Below, one piece after another: positions 6,448-63,268 of a DNA stretch of 64,000 nucleotides; within the stretch, counting starts at the first letter, position 1; each line of letters begins with the position of its first letter. The position numbers were made by a program, and so were the translations under genes. The stretch lies in the sequence record OR906198.1; one strand, written 5' to 3'. The notes below the pieces were generated by a model, which searched no databases, was not told where the DNA came from, and worked only from the letters and a program-made list of their open reading frames with translations. The DNA is from Escherichia phage BP32.

Positions 6448-6969
6448 ATGTTTATTTCAAGTGGAAGTGGTTTAATTCGTGTTGAATTTAAAAATGACAT
6501 CTTCCTTATTCAAGGAGATGATATTATTAAAATGAGTTATGACGAAATCAAGAAAATTTGTCACGCTCTTGAAAGTCATGGAAAGGAAAATGCTACTATC
6601 GATATAGGTGATTTATGGGTAACGCTTTATGAAGTATCCGAAGGATTTAACATTGAAGATGAAAATAACATTTTAGCTATTGATAAAAGGACCGATTTGT
6701 TTGATGTGTTAAAAGTTTATGAACAGTCAAACGGTGGAAGAAAAGCCGTATTGATTTATCAAAAACCGCATTCATGTGGAACTGCTTCAATCATTTCAAA
6801 TATTGAAGATGAAACTGATACCTATATGTGTGTTTTGAAAGCTGGTGGTGACCGTCATCCGGATTTTATTTCTATTCGTCAAAACAATGGAGAAATTTCA
6901 TTATCAAAATCAGAAGCTGAAGCTATGATTAAGTATTTAACAACTGTTACACCTTCAATGAAAGGATAA
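6448..6969 (+). CDS. hypothetical protein, paralog B
   Basis: 173 aa; C-terminus resembles that of the preceding ORF. Confidence 0.55.
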   Translation: MFISSGSGLIRVEFKNDIFLIQGDDIIKMSYDEIKKICHALESHGKENATIDIGDLWVTLYEVSEGFNIEDENNILAIDKRTDLFDVLKVYEQSNGGRKAVLIYQKPHSCGTASIISNIEDETDTYMCVLKAGGDRHPDFISIRQNNGEISLSKSEAEAMIKYLTTVTPSMKG

Positions 6970-8425: not shown

Positions 8426-8428
8426 TAA

Positions 8429-8452
8429 GGGAGCCTTCGGGCTCCCTTTTTT
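8429..8452 (+). terminator. rho-independent terminator (TTCG loop)
   Basis: gggagcc-ttcg-ggctccc followed by T6. Confidence 0.8.
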
Positions 8453-8476
8453 ATTTCAAAAATTTTTCATAAAACT

Positions 8477-8506
8477 GTTTACAAGCATAAAGCTTTATGG
8501 TACTAT
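8477..8506 (+). promoter_or_regulatory. T4-type early promoter with conserved leader
   Basis: gtttac...17 bp...tactat; leader to ATG 8541 nearly identical to the one at 35241-35291. Confidence 0.65.
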
Positions 8507-8540
8507 ACAACTATCAACTGATACGGATTTGGAGAATAAA

Positions 8541-9509
8541 ATGAAAACTGTAACTATCAATAAAGGTATCTACTTCGGTAAAGAAATCTCTGGAACTTTT
8601 GAGCTCTTAGGCGAATGGTTCCCAGATAATGCTCCGGTAGATGCACAAGGAGATGGTAAAGTTTTTGTTGAAATTGACGGTAAACGTCGCGGTGTTTGGG
8701 TTTACAAATCAGATATTTCATATGATGGTGTAAAAGTTGAAGAAGTTAAAGAATCATATGAAGATATGAAAACCCGCATTAATAAAAGATTTAATGTTAT
8801 GGGAATGATGACGAATGGTATTATTAATGGAAATATTCGTTCATTAATTATCTCTGGCGCAGCAGGTATTGGTAAAACGTATTCTTTAGATAAAGCTTTA
8901 AATAAAGCAAATGATATTGGATACATTGAATATAAAAGCATTAATGGTAAAATCTCTGGTATTGGTCTTTATGAGCAGCTTTGGAATAATCGTGAAGAGA
9001 ACTCTGTCCTTTTGATTGATGATGTGGATGTTTTCTCTGATATGGACATTCTTAATCTTCTGAAAGCTGCTCTGGACACTGGAGAGACCCGTAAAGTCTG
9101 CTGGAGCACTGCATCTTCTTACTTAGAAGAAAAAGGCATTGACCGTGAGTTTGAATTTAAAGGAACGATTGTTTTTATCACAAACGTTGATATTGACCGC
9201 GAATTAGACCGTGGTACTAAACTTGCCCCACACTTACAAGCATTAGTGTCCCGCTCAGTTTATTTAGATTTGGGTGTTCACACTAATGAAGAAATTATGG
9301 TCAGGGTTGAAGATGTTATTCTTTCAACCGACATGATGCAAAAGCGCGGTCTTTCTGATGAAGAAACTTATAAAGCATTATCATGGATGAAAGTTAATGT
9401 TAATCGTTTACGCAATGTTTCACTGCGTACTGCTCTTTATCTTGCTGACTTTATTATGACCGACAAAAACGGTTGGGAAGAAATTGCTGAGGTTACTCTT
9501 CTGAAATAA
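8541..9509 (+). CDS. AAA+ ATPase (Walker A/B)
   Basis: Walker A GAAGIGKTY, Walker B LLIDDVD; GGAGA RBS; the listed start at 8373 was rejected because it reads through the terminator and promoter. Confidence 0.7.
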   Translation: MKTVTINKGIYFGKEISGTFELLGEWFPDNAPVDAQGDGKVFVEIDGKRRGVWVYKSDISYDGVKVEEVKESYEDMKTRINKRFNVMGMMTNGIINGNIRSLIISGAAGIGKTYSLDKALNKANDIGYIEYKSINGKISGIGLYEQLWNNREENSVLLIDDVDVFSDMDILNLLKAALDTGETRKVCWSTASSYLEEKGIDREFEFKGTIVFITNVDIDRELDRGTKLAPHLQALVSRSVYLDLGVHTNEEIMVRVEDVILSTDMMQKRGLSDEETYKALSWMKVNVNRLRNVSLRTALYLADFIMTDKNGWEEIAEVTLLK

Positions 9510-9610: not shown

Positions 9611-9913
9611 ATGTTATACTCAAAGGCTCGTGAAATTTACGAAACTAAAATTAAAGAAGCAGTATTTCAATTCGCAACGACAATGCGATGGACAAATGAC
9701 TGGGAGTATTCAAAAAATCATAAGAAGCCCATGGTGACAAGAAAGGCTCATATGTTAGTGTTAATAGACCGTGAGCAGATTAAAGCCCGAGAAGCCCTCC
9801 AGAATCATAAAAAGGCTGCCTTTGAATGGTTTATGGATAATACTGCTCCTGAGACTAAGAAAGCGGTAAGTGCATGGTTCAGTGGAAAAAATTGTGAAAG
9901 AAGTTTCTTTTAG
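9611..9913 (+). CDS. hypothetical protein (100 aa)
   Basis: GGAGG RBS 5 nt upstream of ATG 9611. Confidence 0.55.
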   Translation: MLYSKAREIYETKIKEAVFQFATTMRWTNDWEYSKNHKKPMVTRKAHMLVLIDREQIKAREALQNHKKAAFEWFMDNTAPETKKAVSAWFSGKNCERSFF

Positions 9914-9915
9914 TT

Positions 9916-9945
9916 GTTTACAAGACTGTTCCTCTGTGGTACTAT
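9916..9945 (+). promoter_or_regulatory. T4-type early promoter with conserved leader
   Basis: near-identical copy of 63098-63157. Confidence 0.65.
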
Positions 9946-9973
9946 ACAACTATCAACTACGGAGGAACAGAAA

Positions 9974-10501
9974 ATGAACGCTAAAGATATTTTCAACTTG
10001 GTAAATTACAACGATGGTAAATTTAAATCTGAAGCACAAAGCAAGTTCTTTAACGACATCTCAATCGGAGGTGAAATCACTGTTGATGGAGGACAAATTT
10101 ACAAATCCCGTTGGAATTGGATCGTTATTATTGATGAGATCGGTATTGTAGAAATTTACAAGAATACGAATAAAAATAGTACATTACACTGGTCTCGTGA
10201 TACTAACGAACAGTACAAAAAGGATAAAGCATCTAAATTATCTCGTGTAACTCAAGAAGATATTGAGTTCATCAAGAAAGATATTTTAATGTATGATAAC
10301 TTAATTGCTGAAGAGCAAGCTGTTATTGATAAATTTGACGAGATTAAAGCTTCTCGTGAAATTCCTGATTTTATGAAAGAATCAGTAAATGAACGATACA
10401 CTCTCATTTCAGAGCGTATTGAAACTTACAAAAAGCAAAGAGCTGAACGCCAAAATACTCTTCGGAAGTTTGAAGAACGGTTAAAGACGGTACTCGCATA
10501 A
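9974..10501 (+). CDS. hypothetical protein with C-terminal coiled coil
   Basis: GGAGG RBS; 175 aa. Confidence 0.6.
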   Translation: MNAKDIFNLVNYNDGKFKSEAQSKFFNDISIGGEITVDGGQIYKSRWNWIVIIDEIGIVEIYKNTNKNSTLHWSRDTNEQYKKDKASKLSRVTQEDIEFIKKDILMYDNLIAEEQAVIDKFDEIKASREIPDFMKESVNERYTLISERIETYKKQRAERQNTLRKFEERLKTVLA

Positions 10502-17554: not shown

Positions 17555-19368
17555 CAATTGAAAAAGAAATTGAAGGATTAATTCATAAAACTAATAAAGA
17601 CCTTTTGAACGAGAATGCTAATAAAGATTCTCGTGTTTTTCCAACTCAACGGGACCTTATGGCTGGTATTGTGTCTAAACACATTGCCAAAAATATGGTC
17701 CCGTCTTTTATTATGAAAGCGCATGAAAGCGGAATTATTCATTTCCATGATATTGATTATTCCCCTGCTCTTCCATTTACTAATTGCTGTTTAGTAGATT
17801 TAAAAGGAATGCTTGAGAACGGATTTAAGCTCGGTAATGCACAGATTGAAACTCCTAAATCAATCGGCGTTGCTACTGCAATTATGGCGCAAATTACTGC
17901 ACAGGTTGCTTCCCATCAATATGGTGGAACGACTTTTGCGAATGTAGACAAAGTACTTTCTCCTTATGTTAAACGCACCTATGCAAAACATATTGAAGAT
18001 GCAGAAAAATGGCAAATCGCTGATGCGCTGAATTACGCCCAGTCTAAAACAGAAAAAGACGTATACGATGCATTCCAAGCTTATGAATATGAAGTAAATA
18101 CTCTCTTTAGTTCAAACGGACAAACGCCCTTTGTAACAATTACATTTGGCACGGGAACTGACTGGACTGAACGAATGATTCAGAAAGCAATTCTGAAAAA
18201 TCGTATCAAAGGTCTTGGTCGTGATGGGATAACTCCTATTTTCCCTAAGCTTGTTATGTTCGTTGAAGAGGGTGTTAATCTTTATAAAGACGATCCGAAC
18301 TATGATATTAAGCAGCTTGCTCTAGAGTGTGCAAGTAAAAGAATGTATCCTGACATCATTTCGGCTAAGAACAATAAAGCTATCACAGGTTCATCTATTC
18401 CTGTTTCTCCAATGGGTTGCCGCAGTTTCTTAAGTGTATGGAAAGATTCGACTGGTAATGAAATTCTTGATGGACGTAATAATCTTGGCGTTGTAACACT
18501 GAATCTTCCTCGTATTGCGTTAGATTCTTATATTGGAACACAGTTCAATGAACAGAAATTTGCCGAATTGTTCAATGAACGAATGGATTTATGTTTTGAA
18601 GCTTTGATGTGTAGAATCAGTTCCTTAAAAGGAGTTAAAGCTACTGTTGCTCCTATTCTTTACCAAGAAGGTGCATTCGGGGTTCGTCTTAAACCTGATG
18701 ACGATATAATTGAGTTATTTAAAAACGGTAGAAGTTCAGTGTCCCTAGGATACATTGGTATTCACGAATTGAATATTCTTGTCGGTCGTGATATTGGACA
18801 AGAAATTTTAACTAAAATGAATACTCATCTTAAACAATGGACTGAAAGAACCGGATTTGCTTTTAGTTTATATTCTACTCCTGCTGAAAACCTGTGCTAT
18901 CGCTTCTGTAAACTTGATACCGAAAAATATGGAAGTGTAAAAGATGTTACCGATAAAGGCTGGTACACTAACAGTTTCCACGTTTCAGTAGAAGAAAATA
19001 TTACTCCGTTTGAAAAGATTTCTCGCGAAGCACCGTATCATTTCATTGCGACAGGTGGTCACATTTCTTATGTTGAACTTCCTGATATGAAAAATAACCT
19101 AAAAGGTCTTGAGGCTGTATGGGATTATGCTGCACAACATTTAGATTATTTTGGTGTTAATATGCCAGTAGATAAATGTTTTACATGCGGAAGTACCCAT
19201 GAAATGACTCCTACTGAAAACGGATTTGTTTGTTCTATTTGTGGAGAAACTGATCCTAAAAAGATGAACACAATAAGAAGAACATGTGGCTATTTGGGAA
19301 ATCCGAATGAACGCGGATTTAATCTTGGCAAAAATAAAGAAATCATGCATAGGGTTAAACACCAATGA
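17551..19368 (+). CDS. nrdD: anaerobic ribonucleoside-triphosphate reductase
   Basis: 605 aa contiguous ORF; C-terminal Cys cluster and glycyl-radical-type tail RTCGYLGN. Confidence 0.97.
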   Translation: MTIEKEIEGLIHKTNKDLLNENANKDSRVFPTQRDLMAGIVSKHIAKNMVPSFIMKAHESGIIHFHDIDYSPALPFTNCCLVDLKGMLENGFKLGNAQIETPKSIGVATAIMAQITAQVASHQYGGTTFANVDKVLSPYVKRTYAKHIEDAEKWQIADALNYAQSKTEKDVYDAFQAYEYEVNTLFSSNGQTPFVTITFGTGTDWTERMIQKAILKNRIKGLGRDGITPIFPKLVMFVEEGVNLYKDDPNYDIKQLALECASKRMYPDIISAKNNKAITGSSIPVSPMGCRSFLSVWKDSTGNEILDGRNNLGVVTLNLPRIALDSYIGTQFNEQKFAELFNERMDLCFEALMCRISSLKGVKATVAPILYQEGAFGVRLKPDDDIIELFKNGRSSVSLGYIGIHELNILVGRDIGQEILTKMNTHLKQWTERTGFAFSLYSTPAENLCYRFCKLDTEKYGSVKDVTDKGWYTNSFHVSVEENITPFEKISREAPYHFIATGGHISYVELPDMKNNLKGLEAVWDYAAQHLDYFGVNMPVDKCFTCGSTHEMTPTENGFVCSICGETDPKKMNTIRRTCGYLGNPNERGFNLGKNKEIMHRVKHQ

Positions 19369-25254: not shown

Positions 25255-25878
25255 ATGAAAAAATATATAACTTATTTAACAATATATAGTGGAGATAAAC
25301 TTCCTCCTTTTTATATTGGATCTACATCTTTAGATAGGCATTTAGCCGGATATCATGGATCAGTTTTATCTAAAAAGTATAAGAAAATTTATAATGAAGA
25401 ACTTTCAAATAACCCACATTTATTTGATTCATGCATTTTAGATGAATTTGATACGCGCGAAGAAGCTATTAAATGCGAGCTATATTATCAACGTTTGCAT
25501 GATGCGGTTAAAAATCCATTATTCTTTAATATGTCATATGCTGCTCCAAAAGGTTCATTTGGAAGAGATATTAAAGGACAAAATCATCCATTATATGGTT
25601 CTCATAATTGTAAAGGAAACATACATTCACATGACCCATTAACAGGAAAATCTGCCTTTTTACCGTATATTCCAGAAGGTTATGTAAAAGGAAGGTCAAA
25701 TAAATTTAAAGCTTCATCACATAATAAAGGTAAAAAATGGTATAATAACGGAGTTAAGCAAATGTTATGTCATGAACCTCCTGGTCCTGAATGGACAAAG
25801 GGAAAAATTAAAGAACTAGTTTCAAAAGCAGCTAAATTAGGATGGAAAAGACACCATGAAAATACTAAACTTGGGTGA
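25255..25878 (+). CDS. GIY-YIG family homing-endonuclease-like protein (Seg/I-TevI-like)
   Basis: YLTIY...(8)...FYIGSTS, then R..H, then FDSCILDEF...E aligning by eye with the I-TevI catalytic domain; 207 aa. Confidence 0.7.
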   Translation: MKKYITYLTIYSGDKLPPFYIGSTSLDRHLAGYHGSVLSKKYKKIYNEELSNNPHLFDSCILDEFDTREEAIKCELYYQRLHDAVKNPLFFNMSYAAPKGSFGRDIKGQNHPLYGSHNCKGNIHSHDPLTGKSAFLPYIPEGYVKGRSNKFKASSHNKGKKWYNNGVKQMLCHEPPGPEWTKGKIKELVSKAAKLGWKRHHENTKLG

Positions 25879-35107: not shown

Positions 35108-35120
35108 TAGAATAAATCTA

Positions 35121-35141
35121 GGGACCTCCGGGTCCCTTTTT
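35121..35141 (+). terminator. rho-independent terminator
   Basis: gggacc-tccg-ggtccc followed by T5. Confidence 0.8.
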
Positions 35142-35224
35142 CATACAAGTAATATAAATCTATACTTAGGAAAAATAGATGATTCTGGGCCCTTTGAATT
35201 CATTAAAAATTTTTTCACAAAATG

Positions 35225-35254
35225 GTTTACATCCCGGTTCCTTTATGGTACTAT
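35225..35254 (+). promoter_or_regulatory. T4-type early promoter with conserved leader
   Basis: gtttac...17 bp...tactat; leader nearly identical to 8492-8543. Confidence 0.65.
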
Positions 35255-35288
35255 ATAACTATCAACTGATACGGATTTGGAGAATGAA

Positions 35289-35669
35289 ATGAAAATCGCT
35301 ATTTTGGTTATTGCATTGGGTCTTACTGGTTGTGTAGCTCAAGGACCAGTAGTAAATCAGTCTGATGTAGGAAAAATTGTAAACTGTTCAAGCAAATTTT
35401 ATAATCCTAATGTTAAGTGTTATAAAGAAGCTCCAAAACAGACAGTAGAACAAATGCAGGCGAATTTTGACGAAGCTATTCGTCCAGATGAATCTGCCCA
35501 AGCATATCGTAATTCAGATGTAATTACACGCGAAGAAAAAATTGAAAGCTACTGCGCTGAACTTTGGGCTAATTGGGCTAATAATTACCAATGGCGTACT
35601 GGTAAAAATGCTCCGATGGAGTATGTAGTGAATTCTTATAATTCATGTGTAAAAAATTTGACTAAGTGA
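35289..35669 (+). CDS. predicted lipoprotein
   Basis: signal peptide with lipobox LTGC; GGAGA RBS; 126 aa. Confidence 0.6.
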   Translation: MKIAILVIALGLTGCVAQGPVVNQSDVGKIVNCSSKFYNPNVKCYKEAPKQTVEQMQANFDEAIRPDESAQAYRNSDVITREEKIESYCAELWANWANNYQWRTGKNAPMEYVVNSYNSCVKNLTK

Positions 35670-40940: not shown

Positions 40941-41183
40941 ATGCATACGGTTTTATTTAAACCTACTCCGTATAATGTTAGGAAAAATACTCAATTCAAA
41001 GCACTTGTTGCAGATACGTGGGAATTGGTGTTAGATATTCCAGCAGAAGAAAGTCCTCCATTTGGTCGAGTGGAATTTATTAAGTTTGCTGTGCGCCCTA
41101 CGAAGCGACAGATTCGTCAATGCAAAAGATACTTTCGTAAAATCGTCAAGTTAGAGAAACAGTTATTGATGCTAGTAAAATAG
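40941..41183 (+). CDS. hypothetical basic protein (80 aa)
   Basis: GAGGGTAA RBS. Confidence 0.5.
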   Translation: MHTVLFKPTPYNVRKNTQFKALVADTWELVLDIPAEESPPFGRVEFIKFAVRPTKRQIRQCKRYFRKIVKLEKQLLMLVK

Positions 41184-41185
41184 TA

Positions 41186-41215
41186 GTTTACAAGCTGATA
41201 GAGTTGTGTTATAGT
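41186..41215 (+). promoter_or_regulatory. T4-type early promoter with 10 bp inverted repeat
   Basis: gtttac...tatagt; agctgataga ... tctatcagct. Confidence 0.65.
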
Positions 41216-41246
41216 AATTCTATCAGCTAATCGCGGAGAAAAGAAA

Positions 41247-41501
41247 ATGATGCTAGTTAATAGAGAATATCAGTTTAAATCAGAAGAAGATTTGGAAAAA
41301 TTCGCAAGTGGTTGTGAACTGAATAGACGCACAGCTAAAGTCATAGGATTAAAACCCTTTACAGTTCTAGATTGTGAAGTTTCTAAATTCCGCAGAGGGT
41401 GTTCTATTAGCGGTCATGCTCTGGTTGATGGGAACACATTTTTCTTTGTTTTTAGCGTCAGAGAACTTTTATTGATTAACGAACTTGAGGAAATAAAATA
41501 G
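41247..41501 (+). CDS. hypothetical protein (84 aa)
   Basis: GGAGAAAA RBS. Confidence 0.55.
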   Translation: MMLVNREYQFKSEEDLEKFASGCELNRRTAKVIGLKPFTVLDCEVSKFRRGCSISGHALVDGNTFFFVFSVRELLLINELEEIK

Positions 41502-51526: not shown

Positions 51527-51787
51527 TTGAGGAAGCTATTCGTGGAAATAACTAAAGACCAGTTTTATCTACTTCAAGATAAAGTGAGCGAAATATATGA
51601 AATAGCTTATAGTAAAAATCGCAAAAACGTGAAAATTGAATCAGGCAAGTTAATGCTTCAATTGGAAGAAATCGAACGAGATTTGATTGCGTTAGAATTC
51701 TTTTGCGGTGAAGTGAAAACTGTCACAATCAGTGATTATGTTTTAGGTGAAATTAGCCATCTTTATAAGGCGATTATTAATGATTGA
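51527..51787 (+). CDS. hypothetical protein (86 aa), paralog of next ORF
   Basis: similar LEEI..D...F motif to the downstream ORF. Confidence 0.5.
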   Translation: MRKLFVEITKDQFYLLQDKVSEIYEIAYSKNRKNVKIESGKLMLQLEEIERDLIALEFFCGEVKTVTISDYVLGEISHLYKAIIND

Positions 51788-52022
51788 ATTAAGTTTACAT
51801 CAGTTTAAATCTCTTATGACAAATGTTAAAGCTGTCATTGAGGAAAATCCAGGACCTGATAATGTTACTATTCGCGAAAAAGCTTCAAAGATAGTATACA
51901 GTCTTGAAGAGATACAAAAAGATATTGAATCTATGGCAAAATTTATTGATGAGCCCATTAATAAAGTTTATATCCAAGATTATACTGTAGGTCAAATTCG
52001 CGATTTAGCAAGGAAAATTTAA
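51780..52022 (+). CDS. hypothetical protein (80 aa), paralog of previous ORF
   Basis: AAGG RBS before ATG 51780. Confidence 0.5.
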   Translation: MIELSLHQFKSLMTNVKAVIEENPGPDNVTIREKASKIVYSLEEIQKDIESMAKFIDEPINKVYIQDYTVGQIRDLARKI

Positions 52023-52705
52023 TGTTTGATTTTATTATAGATTTTGAAACAATGGGAAGTGGTGAAAAGGCAGCTGTTATTGATTTGGCTGTTATTGCCT
52101 TTGACCCTAATCCAGAAGTAGTTGAAACATTCGATGAATTAGTTTCGCGCGGCATTAAAATCAAATTTGATTTAAAAAGTCAAAAAGGACATCGTCTTTT
52201 TACTAAAAGCACTATCGAATGGTGGAAAAATCAGTCTCCTGAAGCTCGAAAAAATATTGCACCGTCAGATGAAGATGTAAGCACTATCGATGGTATTGTA
52301 AAATTTAATGATTACATCAATGCACATAACATCGATCCTTGGAAATCTCAAGGCTGGTGCCGTGGAATGTCGTTTGATTTTCCAATTTTAGTCGATCTCA
52401 TTCGCGATATTCAACGTCTTAATGGCGTTTCTGAGAATGAACTTGACACATTTAAGTTAGAACCGTGTAAATTCTGGAATCAGCGTGATATTCGTACCAG
52501 AATTGAAGCACTTCTCCTTGTTCGTGATATGACCACGTGTCCTCTTCCAAAAGGAACTTTAGATGGATTCGTTGCACATGATTCTATTCATGACTGTGCG
52601 AAAGACATCCTGATGATGAAGTATGCTTTGCGATATGCTATGGGTCTTGAAGATGCTCCGTCAGAGGAAGAGTGCGATCCTCTATCTCTTCCAACAAAAC
52701 GATAA
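52022..52705 (+). CDS. dexA: exonuclease A (DnaQ-like 3-5 exonuclease)
   Basis: 227 aa; DFET motif; sequence recognised. Confidence 0.9.
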   Translation: MFDFIIDFETMGSGEKAAVIDLAVIAFDPNPEVVETFDELVSRGIKIKFDLKSQKGHRLFTKSTIEWWKNQSPEARKNIAPSDEDVSTIDGIVKFNDYINAHNIDPWKSQGWCRGMSFDFPILVDLIRDIQRLNGVSENELDTFKLEPCKFWNQRDIRTRIEALLLVRDMTTCPLPKGTLDGFVAHDSIHDCAKDILMMKYALRYAMGLEDAPSEEECDPLSLPTKR

Positions 52706-52711
52706 AAAGTT

Positions 52712-52741
52712 GTTTACTTCCTCGGTTAGTTGTGGTATTAT
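52712..52741 (+). promoter_or_regulatory. T4-type early promoter
   Basis: gtttacttcctcggttagttgtggtattat. Confidence 0.7.
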
Positions 52742-52768
52742 AACACCATAGCTACTGAGGATAATAAA

Positions 52769-53269
52769 ATGAAAATTTATCGTGTTGAATCATCTTTTAG
52801 TATTCTTAATTGTGAAGATGCTATAACAATACGTCGAAATCTTTGTGTTCAAATAACGCCATACAGGAGTATAATAGATTCATGGAGCGAAGAGTGGTTA
52901 TTACACGTAGGTTATGACAGACCTAATTTTATGCATCATAGCGATGATAATAAAAGAATTCCTTTACCACACGAAGATAAACTATTAGTTAAAAACGCTA
53001 ATATAGTAATTAATACTAAGTTCAAGAAAGATTATGTTGGAGTAGAATATCATATTCCAGGATGGTTTATAGCTCTTTATCATTTTGCTTTCGCTAGTGA
53101 ATATGATATGATGAGATGGTTCACACGAGAAGAGCGGGAAGAATTATCTTCTAAAGGATTTTATCTCGCTGTATACGAAGTTTCTGAAGATGAAGTTATC
53201 ATTGGCGGGCACCAAGTAATGTTCCGCAAATCGCATGCTGAACTCATAGATTTTATTGAAATGAGATAA
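52769..53269 (+). CDS. hypothetical protein (166 aa; motB.2 position)
   Basis: GAGGA RBS. Confidence 0.55.
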   Translation: MKIYRVESSFSILNCEDAITIRRNLCVQITPYRSIIDSWSEEWLLHVGYDRPNFMHHSDDNKRIPLPHEDKLLVKNANIVINTKFKKDYVGVEYHIPGWFIALYHFAFASEYDMMRWFTREEREELSSKGFYLAVYEVSEDEVIIGGHQVMFRKSHAELIDFIEMR

Positions 53270-53271
53270 TT

Positions 53272-53814
53272 ATGAAATTTAATTATAATCCTGAATACAT
53301 ACCAAATCCGGTAGCTAAACTGATTGATTTTGATGTTGTAAGCACTTATGTATGCCCTGTTAAACCACTGGAAATTAAGGAACCTACTATGACTACCGCT
53401 ATTGAAATCGGCAAAACCTACAAACTGGTTGAACCTGAAATTAAAACTAATGCCTTGATTTCCGGCCATAAAACTCTGACTGATGTTTTTGGCGAAGGCG
53501 AATTTACTGTTGAAGACTTTGAAAAAAGTAAATGGTTTACTAAATCTTATATTGTACACGGTCGTCGTTTAGACAATAACAAAATAGAGAAAATCCTGGT
53601 TTATGAAGCAGAGTTCATCCTGTTCCAAGAAGTTGAAGAACAAGACCCTACAGACCTTCTAACTCGTGCGGTAGCTATCAAGACTCCATTTATTTCAGTC
53701 TGTGGTTGGGTAACAGACCAGTGGATTGAAGATGGTGTTGAACTTCTGAACGTTGTTCATGCAGGTGATTTTAGTGTAGTACCTCGTAGTGCGGTGGTAG
53801 CTATTTTGAATTAA
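53272..53814 (+). CDS. MotB-like paralog (180 aa)
   Basis: C-terminal VTDQWIEDGVELLNVV resembles ITDQWVEDGVKLYNVV of the next gene. Confidence 0.55.
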   Translation: MKFNYNPEYIPNPVAKLIDFDVVSTYVCPVKPLEIKEPTMTTAIEIGKTYKLVEPEIKTNALISGHKTLTDVFGEGEFTVEDFEKSKWFTKSYIVHGRRLDNNKIEKILVYEAEFILFQEVEEQDPTDLLTRAVAIKTPFISVCGWVTDQWIEDGVELLNVVHAGDFSVVPRSAVVAILN

Positions 53815-54379: not shown

Positions 54380-54404
54380 AGTTTAAAATTTTTTCATAAA
54401 ACTA

Positions 54405-54433
54405 TATACATCAGTAGTTGATTATGGTACTAT
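54405..54433 (+). promoter_or_regulatory. early-promoter-like element inside an 11 bp perfect inverted repeat
   Basis: cagtagttgat-tatggtactatatcaat-atcaactactg; -35 is the variant TATACA. Confidence 0.5.
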
Positions 54434-54476
54434 ATCAATATCAACTACTGATACAGAAAACAACTTGGAGAATAAA

Positions 54477-54746
54477 ATGGAAAACTTAATTATCATCGAA
54501 CAATCTTTCAACGATTATGGTATGGCTTACGGTTATCGTGCGATAATGGAAGATTCTCGTGGATGTGTTATCGATATTGCTGAATGTAAAGATTTACTGC
54601 AGCTTTTGAAGATTGTTCGTAAAAATTGGGATTGTGAAAACATTAAAGTTCGTGTTGTAACGGAAGAAGAAACTGTTTTTCATGATGTAAAATTTGCCAA
54701 AGGTGCTGCTACTATTCTGAAACGCATCGCTCCACTGTTCAATTAA
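54477..54746 (+). CDS. hypothetical protein (89 aa)
   Basis: GGAGA RBS. Confidence 0.55.
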   Translation: MENLIIIEQSFNDYGMAYGYRAIMEDSRGCVIDIAECKDLLQLLKIVRKNWDCENIKVRVVTEEETVFHDVKFAKGAATILKRIAPLFN

Positions 54747-56281: not shown

Positions 56282-58099
56282 ATGATTAAGAATGAAATTA
56301 AAATTCTGAGCGATATTGAACATATCAAAAAGCGTAGCGGCATGTACATTGGCTCTTCCGCTAATGAAATGCATGAGCGCTTTCTGTTTGGTAAATGGGA
56401 AAGTGTTCAGTATGTACCTGGTCTTGTTAAGCTTATTGATGAAATTATTGATAACTCAGTAGATGAAGGTATTCGTACTAAGTTTAAATTCGCAAATAAA
56501 ATTAATGTTACTATCAAAAACAATCAAGTAACAGTTGAAGATAACGGTCGTGGTATTCCACAAGCGATGGTTAAAACACCTACTGGTGAAGAAATTCCTG
56601 GTCCAGTTGCTGCCTGGACTATTCCAAAAGCAGGTGGTAACTTTGGTGATGATAAAGAACGCGTCACCGGTGGTATGAATGGTGTTGGTTCTAGTTTAAC
56701 TAACATTTTTTCTGTGATGTTTGTCGGTGAAACCGGCGATGGTCAAAATAATATTGTAGTTCGTTGTTCAAATGGCATGGAAAATAAATCGTGGGAAACT
56801 ATTCCTGGAAAATGGAAAGGAACTCGCGTTACTTTCATTCCCGATTTTATGTCATTTGAAACTAATGAGCTATCTCAGGTTTATCTTGACATTACACTAG
56901 ATCGTCTCCAGACACTTGCGGTAGTTTATCCTGATATTCAATTTACCTTTAACGGTAAAAAGGTTCAGGGTAATTTTAAGAAATATGCACGCCAATATGA
57001 TGAACACGCTATCGTTCAAGAACAAGAAAATTGTTCTATTGCGGTTGGTCGTTCACCTGATGGTTTTCGTCAATTAACATACGTCAATAACATTCATACT
57101 AAGAATGGTGGCCATCACATTGACTGCGTTATGGATGATATTTGTGAAGACCTTATTCCACAAATCAAACGTAAATTCAAAATTGATGTAACTAAAGCAC
57201 GTGTCAAAGAATGTTTGACTATCGTTATGTTTGTTCGTGATATGAAAAACATGCGATTTGATTCTCAAACTAAAGAGCGTCTGACTTCTCCATTTGGTGA
57301 AATCCGTAGTCATATTCAGCTTGATGCTAAAAAGATTTCACGTGCTATTTTGAATAATGAAGCAATTTTAATGCCAATCATTGAAGCTGCCTTGGCTCGT
57401 AAATTGGCGGCAGAAAAAGCAGCAGAAACTAAAGCAGCTAAAAAGGCCTCTAAAGCTAAGGTTCATAAACACATTAAAGCGAATCTTTGCGGTAAAGATG
57501 CTGACACTACTCTTTTCTTGACTGAGGGTGATTCTGCTATCGGATATCTTATTGATGTTCGTGATAAAGAACTTCATGGTGGTTATCCATTACGCGGTAA
57601 AGTTCTTAACAGCTGGGGTATGTCATATGCTGATATGCTTAAAAACAAAGAACTGTTTGATATTTGCGCAATCACTGGATTAGTTCTTGGCGAAAAAGCT
57701 GAAAACTTGAATTATCATAATATTGCTATTATGACCGATGCTGATCATGATGGTCTAGGAAGCATTTATCCTTCTCTGCTCGGATTTTTTAGTAATTGGC
57801 CAGAACTGTTTGAACAAGGAAGAATTCGCTTTGTCAAAACTCCTGTAATCATCGCTCAGGTCGGTAAAAAACAAGAATGGTTTTATACAGTCGCTGAATA
57901 TGAGAGTGCCAAAGATGCTCTACCTAAACATAGCATCCGTTATATTAAGGGGCTTGGCTCTTTGGAAAAATCTGAATATCGCGAGATGATTCAAAACCCA
58001 GTATATGATGTTGTTAAACTTCCTGAGAATTGGAAAGAGCTTTTTGAAATGCTCATGGGAGATAATGCTGACCTTCGTAAAGAATGGATGAGCCAGTAG
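56282..58099 (+). CDS. 39: DNA topoisomerase II large (GyrB-like) subunit, uninterrupted
   Basis: 605 aa; ATPase and Toprim domains (TDADHDG); C-terminal region matches what T4 encodes separately as gp60. Confidence 0.95.
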   Translation: MIKNEIKILSDIEHIKKRSGMYIGSSANEMHERFLFGKWESVQYVPGLVKLIDEIIDNSVDEGIRTKFKFANKINVTIKNNQVTVEDNGRGIPQAMVKTPTGEEIPGPVAAWTIPKAGGNFGDDKERVTGGMNGVGSSLTNIFSVMFVGETGDGQNNIVVRCSNGMENKSWETIPGKWKGTRVTFIPDFMSFETNELSQVYLDITLDRLQTLAVVYPDIQFTFNGKKVQGNFKKYARQYDEHAIVQEQENCSIAVGRSPDGFRQLTYVNNIHTKNGGHHIDCVMDDICEDLIPQIKRKFKIDVTKARVKECLTIVMFVRDMKNMRFDSQTKERLTSPFGEIRSHIQLDAKKISRAILNNEAILMPIIEAALARKLAAEKAAETKAAKKASKAKVHKHIKANLCGKDADTTLFLTEGDSAIGYLIDVRDKELHGGYPLRGKVLNSWGMSYADMLKNKELFDICAITGLVLGEKAENLNYHNIAIMTDADHDGLGSIYPSLLGFFSNWPELFEQGRIRFVKTPVIIAQVGKKQEWFYTVAEYESAKDALPKHSIRYIKGLGSLEKSEYREMIQNPVYDVVKLPENWKELFEMLMGDNADLRKEWMSQ

Positions 58100-62574: not shown

Positions 62575-62591
62575 AAAATTTTCACAAAACA

Positions 62592-62621
62592 GTTTACATA
62601 CCACAAGGACCGTGGTACTAT
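62592..62621 (+). promoter_or_regulatory. T4-type early promoter with conserved leader
   Basis: gtttacataccacaaggaccgtggtactat. Confidence 0.65.
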
Positions 62622-62648
62622 ACAACTATCAGCTACGGAGGAGTAAAA

Positions 62649-62912
62649 ATGAAATTTAAATTTTATTACGCTAAACATAAAATAACTGATGAGTTTGTGT
62701 CAGTTGAATATTCTAGCGACGATGAAGGTATGATTTATACTCGCTTGGGACTATCGCATTGGGAGTCTGATACGCCTTATTTTTCAACTCCCGAAGAAAT
62801 TACACGCTTAGTTAATGGTCATATGAATGACCACTGGAATGTAATTCTTTCAGATAGTCTTAAAGCGGCTATTAATAGTAATGAAATGAAAATCGCTGAG
62901 ATTGAACTATGA
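62649..62912 (+). CDS. hypothetical protein (87 aa)
   Basis: GGAGGAG RBS. Confidence 0.55.
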   Translation: MKFKFYYAKHKITDEFVSVEYSSDDEGMIYTRLGLSHWESDTPYFSTPEEITRLVNGHMNDHWNVILSDSLKAAINSNEMKIAEIEL

Positions 62913-63097
62913 GTTCATTGTGGTGGTGTTTCGTTTGGTTAATTAGTATTCCATTAATTTGTTTAACATTTACTTTTATGATGAGGTTATTATGAAAATT
63001 TTAAATTCTGTACTTATTGCTTGTGCGTGGTGGGTTGCGCAAGTTTCGGCAGTAGTGATTGGTATTCACATTTATTACGAATATTTTTAAAAAAGTT

Positions 63098-63127
63098 GTT
63101 TACAAGACTGTTCCTCTGTGGTATTAT
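63098..63127 (+). promoter_or_regulatory. T4-type early promoter with conserved leader
   Basis: near-identical copy of 9916-9976. Confidence 0.65.
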
Positions 63128-63154
63128 TACCCTATCAACTACGGAGGAACAGAA

Positions 63155-63268
63155 ATGAAAAAGATTGTTAAAGCTATATGGAATGTAGTTATAATACTAG
63201 TAGTTTTGAGTATATTCCCAATCGTTTTAATGATTGATGTATTAAACGCTTACTTTGGATTTATATGA
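63155..63268 (+). CDS. tiny membrane peptide (37 aa)
   Basis: GGAGG RBS; hydrophobic. Confidence 0.4.
   Translation: MKKIVKAIWNVVIILVVLSIFPIVLMIDVLNAYFGFI

Follow-up and report, generated by a model that had tools for sequence, protein, structure and literature searches.

Three repeated cassettes in the genome of Escherichia phage BP32 (sequence record OR906198.1) have the anatomy of T4-type early promoters (Pe) joined to a short 5' leader, and their activity as promoters is predicted from that anatomy. We put at roughly 85% the probability that these are early promoter-leader units, two of them copies of a single unit, which would offer stretches of homology for the exchange of small genes between related phages, as in the promoter early stem-loop (PeSL) model. 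The window, as the term is used here, is the whole stretch of 64,000 nucleotides that was analysed, and the features described below lie on its + strand. Copy 1 (8455-8543) is located between nrdC.11 and nrdC.10, copy 2 (35203-35291) between gene 43, which encodes DNA polymerase, and imm.1, and copy 3 (54382-54479) between motB and cef. At each of the three, at least one related phage differs in gene content by an insertion or deletion with an endpoint in the cassette; across the window as a whole, however, gene-content differences show no preference for early promoters over other non-coding gaps.

Anatomy of the cassettes

The repeat was initially described in the first-pass annotation as a near-identical pair beginning at 8492. 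An exact search bears out the pair, with the 51 nt at 8493-8543 found again at 35241-35291 with 2 mismatches; the start was off by one, and the coordinates of the second copy were right. No match to this segment was found in 100 dinucleotide-preserving shuffles (0 expected). Copies 1 and 2 are alike well beyond it, with 74 of 89 bases identical between 8455-8543 and 35203-35291, and the differences fall mainly in the spacer between the -35 and -10 hexamers. The related third copy proposed at 54386-54479 is a true relative that extends over 54382-54479, with 77 identical positions in 103 aligned columns against copy 1 and three indels. The cassettes thus defined are 89-98 nt long and end at the 3' side in GGAGAATrAAATG, which comprises the Shine-Dalgarno sequence (SD) and the start codon. 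A repeat finder places all three copies in larger families (D1, D2 and D10) together with other sites, and T4 itself carries the same repeat pair.

In copy 1, an A/T-rich, UP-like upstream tract, TTCAAAAATTTTTCATAAAACTG (8455-8477; found through repeat family D2 and the matrix described below), precedes a core promoter at 8478-8506 that consists of a -35 hexamer TTTACA (8478-8483), a 17-bp spacer with TG at 8498-8499, and a -10 hexamer TACTAT (8501-8506), scoring 50.5 bits. The stem-loop part of this copy is a terminator-like hairpin, AAGGGAGCC-TTCG-GGCTCCCTT followed by a T-run, at 8427-8448, 3' of nrdC.11. The promoter of copy 2 (35203-35254; 53.0 bits) has the same A/T tract, TTTACA at 35226-35231, a 17-bp spacer, TG, and TACTAT at 35249-35254; a terminator-like hairpin after gene 43 (35120-35137) lies 112 nt upstream of its -10. 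Copy 3 (promoter 54382-54433) again has the A/T tract, a 17-bp spacer, TG, and TACTAT at 54428-54433, with a weak -35 hexamer, TATACA, at 54405-54410; it remained below threshold in a generic sigma-70 scan and reaches 38.6 bits with the T4 early-promoter matrix. The generic scan did recover TTTACA-17-TACTAT with TG at copies 1 and 2, as well as the hairpins at 8427-8448 and 35120-35137. The A/T-rich tract AAAAWTTTTTCAYAAAA (family D2) is common to the cassettes, TG precedes the -10 in all three, and the conserved start of the transcript is ACAACTATCAACT. T4 has orthologous promoter sites upstream of nrdC.10 and imm.1. The description of these elements as promoter-plus-leader cassettes therefore stands for all three copies as regards their sequence anatomy. 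A 37-aa ORF at 35179-35292, the equivalent of which is annotated as a gene in F13076, overlaps the copy 2 promoter and is most likely a spurious call across it.

The position matrix was built from 21 + strand sites picked by eye, which score 23-53 bits by construction, and no further early-promoter site reaches 12 bits with it on either strand of the window. All 21 are on the strand that carries the orthologues of the T4 genes annotated in this region. Related family members occur at 9912-9976, upstream of nrdC.8 and with the same -10 and initially transcribed sequence, at 62588-62652, and at 63094-63157, the last being 92% identical to 9912-9973.

The transcribed leader of copy 1 (8507-8543) is made up of ACAACTATCAACT, the subfamily-specific GATACGGATTT, the SD GGAGAATAAAA (8531-8541) and the ATG (8541-8543). 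That of copy 2 (35255-35291), which likewise runs into the ATG, differs at two positions, a C/T difference just after the -10 hexamer and an A/G difference in the SD tail, GGAGAATGAAA. The copy 3 leader (54434-54479) belongs to the same family, with an extra ACT and GAAAAC, and has the SD GGAGAATAAAA at 54467-54477 and its ATG at 54477. In the window, GATACGGATTTGGAG is found only at copies 1 and 2. Over the leader proper (+20 to +42 from the -10), these two copies are 96% identical, which is rank 1 of the 210 pairs that the 21 promoters form; the median of those pairs is 35% and the next best 74%. The -10 with the first 14 transcribed bases is often alike among the 210, three pairs reaching 95%.

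Folding predictions leave the leaders of copies 1 and 2 without structure (z +0.77 and +0.44). For these two copies, structure in the leader and a hairpin spanning the -10 were both considered and rejected, since neither the leaders nor the promoter-plus-leader stretches fold more stably than shuffled sequences (z +0.4 to +1.0). Nothing in the whole window reaches the gathering score of an Rfam family, and the leader therefore corresponds to no described RNA element. The SD deserves separate mention. The consensus for strong RegB/S1 sites is GGAGRAYARAA (Durand et al. 2006, as cited in Uzan and Miller 2010, PMC3014915), and GGAGAATAAAA agrees with it at 11 of 11 positions in copies 1 (8531-8541) and 3 (54467-54477); these two SDs are the only perfect matches in the 64 kb, where 0.38 would be expected. 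The SD of copy 2 (35279-35289) agrees at 10 of 11. More generally, GGAG is found within 60 nt downstream of the -10 in 15 of the 21 promoters. Like strong RegB/S1 sites, the sites seen here are intergenic, in early leaders and unpaired, and their cleavage is predicted from the sequence.

The reading we prefer would then work as follows. Host sigma-70 RNA polymerase would fire from the cassettes straight after infection, recognising the A/T-rich tract, the -35 TTTACA, the 17-bp spacer, the TG and the -10 TACTAT, and would start some 7 nt past the -10, probably near 8513, 35261 and 54440. The unstructured leader of about 30 nt would provide a GGAG Shine-Dalgarno in an A-rich context that matches the strong RegB/S1 site, and the message would be translated early and afterwards cut by RegB. 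Copies 1 and 2, alike beyond the family consensus, would be copies of one promoter-leader unit rather than products of convergence. Together with the adjacent terminator hairpins, the cassettes would supply short stretches of homology at which recombination between related phages could insert, delete or swap small genes.

The genes behind the copies are unrelated, as the first-pass annotation had it. Copy 1 leads into the nrdC.10 homologue (8541-9509, 322 aa), and the designation AAA+ ATPase is weakly supported by P-loop/AAA matches that are all sub-threshold, such as Pfam AAA_14 with 23.1 bits against a cut-off of 27. Copy 2 precedes the imm.1 homologue (35289-35669, 126 aa, DUF5481), called a lipoprotein there, whose N-terminus, MKIAILVIALGLTGC, does contain a lipobox-like LTGC. 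Copy 3 precedes an 89-aa ORF (54477-54746; phrog_3720) between motB and cef.

A second kind of structure is found at copy 3. There, a perfect 13-bp inverted repeat, ATCAGTAGTTGAT / ATCAACTACTGAT, encloses the -10 (54410-54452; -20.2 kcal/mol, z -4.67); copies 1 and 2 have no inverted repeat of this kind. Such repeats, of 7.5-14 pairs, with the 5' arm in the spacer and the 3' arm just past the -10, in some cases over the SD, were seen in 9 of the 21 promoters, the enclosed -10 hexamers starting at 738, 5746, 9940, 40712, 41210, 43331, 52736, 54428 and 63122. In the member at 9912-9976, upstream of nrdC.8, the spacer CTGTTCCTCTGTGG pairs with the SD region CTACGGAGGAACAG (z -6.28); its fold and that of copy 3 (z -4.67) are thus far above shuffled sequences in stability. 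In the eight sequences of the TATAGT class, 13 of 13 pairs are kept in each; at 7 of them both partners have changed, and the sense strand shows several G-U pairs. Such conservation was reached in 0 of 500 shuffles, for what is a small sample and a structure derived from the same sequences. These features suggest that the hairpin enclosing the -10 may be selected in read-through RNA. The PeSLs of RB49/phi1 had earlier been found to include stem-loops that overlap the -10 (PMC2839356).

Gene content around the cassettes in related phages

The window belongs to a Tequatrovirus (T4-like) genome and follows, in reverse complement, the T4 map from about 63.5 to 0 kb (blastn against T4 AF158101), the collinearity being broken by 17 insertions, deletions or replacements. 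Of the 685 phage records that match a 3-kb piece around copy 1, 495 do so at 95-99% identity, and almost all of the records are from Tequatrovirus phages of Escherichia, Shigella or Yersinia; a second piece, at about 35 kb, gives the same pattern, and the window is 95-98% identical to hundreds of Tequatrovirus genomes. The 89-nt cassette is found at 807 places in 490 phage records, and a scan of IMG/VR with the leader gave 3 loci. Gene content was compared with the homologous region of four relatives, T4, UFV-AREG1, vB_SsoM_113 and F13076.

Behind the copy 1 cassette, vB_SsoM_113 has two additional small ORFs (458 nt), flanked on both sides by a 21-nt direct repeat, TTGGrGAATAAAATGAAAACT, that comprises the SD, the ATG and two codons; nrdC.10 there comes behind the insertion, after a second, different promoter. 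In UFV-AREG1 and F13076, an insertion of about 590 nt in all separates the nrdC.11 hairpin from copy 1, with some 9 nt, CCCTTTTTT, on each side; it holds a 486-nt ADP-ribosyltransferase-like gene together with a promoter and a terminator hairpin belonging to that gene. This unit is present in 44 public genomes, including that of T2, and absent from the window and from T4. The gene product of 161 aa is annotated as modB_2 / RNA polymerase ADP-ribosylase (1254-1739 in F13076 (L007), 51718-52203 in UFV-AREG1). At copy 2, UFV-AREG1 has a 78-aa ORF (233 nt) between the leader and imm.1, with the junction repeat ATGAAAAT. At copy 3 it is T4 that differs, by the loss of 200 nt inside the 89-aa ORF, starting 8 nt past the ATG (54485-54684 of the window). 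The remnant of this ORF in T4 is frameshifted (AF158101, about 6550-6557), and the window, UFV-AREG1, vB_SsoM_113 and F13076 all have it intact. The condition under which the first-pass annotation had expected its proposal to fail, breakpoints lying away from the repeats, is thus not what is seen at the copies it named.

The leader itself is found in further company at the denB/ndd locus, where the vB_SsoM_113 promoter orthologous to 62616 (the 62588-62652 member) has a leader of the copy 1 type followed by a 68-aa ORF that is not in the window. One type of leader therefore stands before five different ORFs, nrdC.10, imm.1, the 78-aa ORF (UFV-AREG1), a 49-aa ORF and the 68-aa ORF (both vB_SsoM_113), at the three loci nrdC.11/nrdC.10, 43/imm.1 and denB/ndd. 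Counting public phage records that cover at least 80% of the respective junction query, the leader is joined to nrdC.10 in 333, to imm.1 in 226, to the 78-aa ORF in 290, to the 49-aa ORF in 70 and to the 68-aa ORF in 115, and the ADP-ribosyltransferase-like cassette (T2 included) is present in 44.

The promoters themselves are mosaic. On the imm.1 side, UFV-AREG1 and vB_SsoM_113 combine an exact 19-nt spacer of the nrdC.8 promoter, CAAGACTGTTCCTCTGTGG, with a leader of the copy 1 type; the spacer at this place is different in the window, T4 and F13076. In vB_SsoM_113, past the point that corresponds to the end of the window, there is a promoter with the upstream tract and the -10 region of copy 1, a spacer one base off and a different leader. 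Such mosaics would fit crossovers within the shared TACTATACAACTATCAACT.

An additional early promoter with an 84-aa ORF lies at 41165-41493, between two other early promoters, in the window and in F13076, and is missing from T4, UFV-AREG1 and vB_SsoM_113. Both of its breakpoints are 31-46 nt upstream of a -10. This is one of two events with both ends in promoter upstream regions, the other being the deletion of 52711-53796 in vB_SsoM_113, the junction of which is out of register with only GT in common. Short homology of 2-9 nt is found at several junctions, among them ATGAAAAT, the GT of the 52711-53796 deletion and the GAAAA of the T4 deletion, and this microhomology also fits illegitimate recombination.

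Several other differences from the relatives were seen along the window. The large subunit of topoisomerase II is encoded by a single 605-aa ORF (56282-58099, junction at 57699-57764); T4 has mobA, 60.1 and the beginning of gene 60, including a 50-nt translational bypass, all of which are missing here. Compared with T4, the window also lacks the I-TevII intron in nrdD (18086-18089), mobC, mobB, segA and segF, and mobD is replaced. Between a-gt and gene 47 the window has a segment of 594 nt (25262-25855; 207-aa ORF at 25255-25878) that T4, UFV-AREG1 and F13076 do not have; an ORF is present at its place in vB_SsoM_113.

When all differences between the window and the four relatives are considered, 47 distinct insertion/deletion or replacement events are counted, at least 7 of which are homing-endonuclease or intron differences. 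With an event taken as promoter-associated if a breakpoint falls within -80 to +70 of an early-promoter -10, 12 of the 47 touch an early promoter and 35 do not. Twelve is more than the approximately 4.6 expected for breakpoints anywhere (binomial p=0.0015), and this excess comes mostly from the breakpoints being intergenic. Early-promoter gaps (19 for the 21 promoters, 2 promoters lying outside a called junction) are affected in 10 of 19 cases, compared with 14 of 28 for other gaps of at least 40 nt, so that no excess is seen (one-sided p=0.55); tight gene junctions are affected less often than promoter-bearing gaps, in 20 of 76 cases (p=0.03). The suggestion that the repeats mark the boundaries of exchanged genes thus holds at the three named copies and is only weakly borne out window-wide. 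As judged by this test with four relatives, the cassettes are used as junctions, sometimes with clear repeats on both sides, with no demonstrable preference over other non-coding gaps, and the PeSL model accounts for some of the plasticity in the window and not for most of it.

Alternative explanations

It has to be asked whether strong selection on promoter and ribosome-binding site, acting on each copy independently and with no role in gene exchange, could have produced the likeness of the copies. The early promoters of T4 do have an extended consensus beyond the sigma-70 elements (PMC2988021), the -10 and initially transcribed part is 95% alike in several other promoters too, and a functional RegB/S1 consensus falls on the SD tail. 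Convergence of this kind nevertheless seems to us quite improbable: the central part of the leader, GATACGGATTT, belongs to no consensus and is found only in this subfamily, the leader identity of copies 1 and 2 is far outside the distribution of the family, and one leader, bordered by indel junctions, precedes five different ORFs. That the resemblance is due to chance or to an artefact of assembly can practically be dismissed, given that none of 100 shuffles contains a match and that the same pair is present in independently sequenced genomes, T4 among them. A single ancient duplication or gene conversion within the genome, since inherited vertically and with no continuing role, would explain why T4, UFV-AREG1, vB_SsoM_113 and F13076 carry the two copies at unchanged loci and why the cassette recurs in 490 phage records. 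We regard it as unlikely, since what follows the cassette varies among relatives at both loci and the cassette has a third locus, denB/ndd, in 115 genomes. The ACT indel and a G/A site in GATACRG are, moreover, polymorphic at both loci, which hints at continuing exchange or gene conversion; recurrent slippage or transitions could also produce these shared polymorphisms.

A different proposal, compatible with the main explanation, is that the leader is a shared cis-regulatory operator, for instance a RegB/S1 site or a site for a translational repressor, which co-regulates nrdC.10, imm.1 and the 89-aa ORF, recombination being incidental. Its attraction lies in the RegB matches of 11/11 or 10/11 at all three SDs, with only two perfect ones in 64 kb, in the unstructured state of the leaders, as RegB needs, and in the frequency of GGAG no more than 60 nt past the -10 (15 of 21 promoters). 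A RegB site would, however, leave all but about the last 11 nt unaccounted for, no ligand is known for GATACGGATTT, the window has no Rfam match, and the breakpoints and mosaic promoters would be left unexplained; this role of the leader is possible, and we hold it to be somewhat doubtful. Returning to the promoter-leader units as a source of homology for exchange, one may tentatively go further and suppose that what moves is an expression head, an early promoter and unstructured leader with a strong RegB/S1 site, placed before at least five unrelated small ORFs at three loci, by which a new gene would be turned on at once and then off by RegB. A second class of cassettes, with a hairpin that encloses the -10 and would be under selection at the RNA level (G-U pairs, compensatory changes), may silence or end read-through transcripts; if so, each cassette of this class would be expressed only from its own promoter.

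Relation to PeSLs and other known systems

The early promoters of T4, as reviewed by Hinton (2010, PMC2988021), have the same architecture of UP element, -35, TGn and -10, with extra conserved positions, and no difference at the sequence level was detected between them and the cassettes described here. Small genes with their own expression signals are also known as lambdoid morons, which are not thought to move via their regulatory sequences, and as integron cassettes, which depend on an integrase and attC sites; nothing here points to a dedicated recombinase.

A closer comparison is that with the PeSLs. Each such cassette in RB49/phi1 measures about 100 bp and brings together an early promoter with an A/T-rich region, a stem-loop, an SD and an ATG (Arbiol et al. 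2010, PMC2839356); they adjoin differential ORFs, and inverse PCR revealed circles with crossovers between the -10 and the SD/ATG. The BP32 cassettes are similar in size, in being composed of promoter, stem-loop and SD-ATG, and in flanking small ORFs; the 21-nt junction at copy 1 also falls between -10 and SD/ATG, and the stem-loops over the -10 box in RB49/phi1 have counterparts in copy 3 and 8 other promoters. In contrast, the RB49 promoters have near-perfect TTGACA/TATAAT hexamers and stems made of G-runs and C-runs, and the authors consider the T-even elements to be analogues, not homologues, of the RB49 PeSLs (PMC2839356). Mini-circles have been seen experimentally only for RB49/phi1 (PMC2839356), whereas the evidence from BP32 consists of junction repeats of 8-21 nt in the sequence.

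The likeness to the PeSL modules of T4-type phages that the first-pass annotation had pointed out is best seen in the elements of T4/PST, for which PeSLs with the same promoter consensus, TTTACW-N17-TAYWAT, and with stem-loops just upstream have been published (Comeau, Arbiol and Krisch 2014, PMC4122927). Clade, consensus, A/T-rich upstream region, SD/ATG at the 3' end, upstream stem-loop (at copy 1) and adjoining indels are all alike, and the differences are that the hairpin of copy 2 is 112 nt from the -10 and that copy 3 has no upstream terminator. As to the stem-loop, the copy 1 hairpin lies 53 nt before the -10, copy 2 with its 112 nt is marginal, and the copy 3 repeat encloses the -10; copy 1 thus fits the PeSL description fully, copy 2 fits it except for the distance of the hairpin, and copy 3 fits the subclass in which the stem-loop overlaps the -10. 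Such cassettes and their proposed role as recombination linkers are, then, already known for the T4/PST clade through the published PeSL concept. Our analysis otherwise brings little that is new to that concept, with the caution that breakpoints of gene content in this window are not concentrated in early-promoter gaps relative to other intergenic ones; what it adds are the junction sequences at nrdC.11/nrdC.10, 43/imm.1 and motB/cef and the number of phage records for each arrangement.
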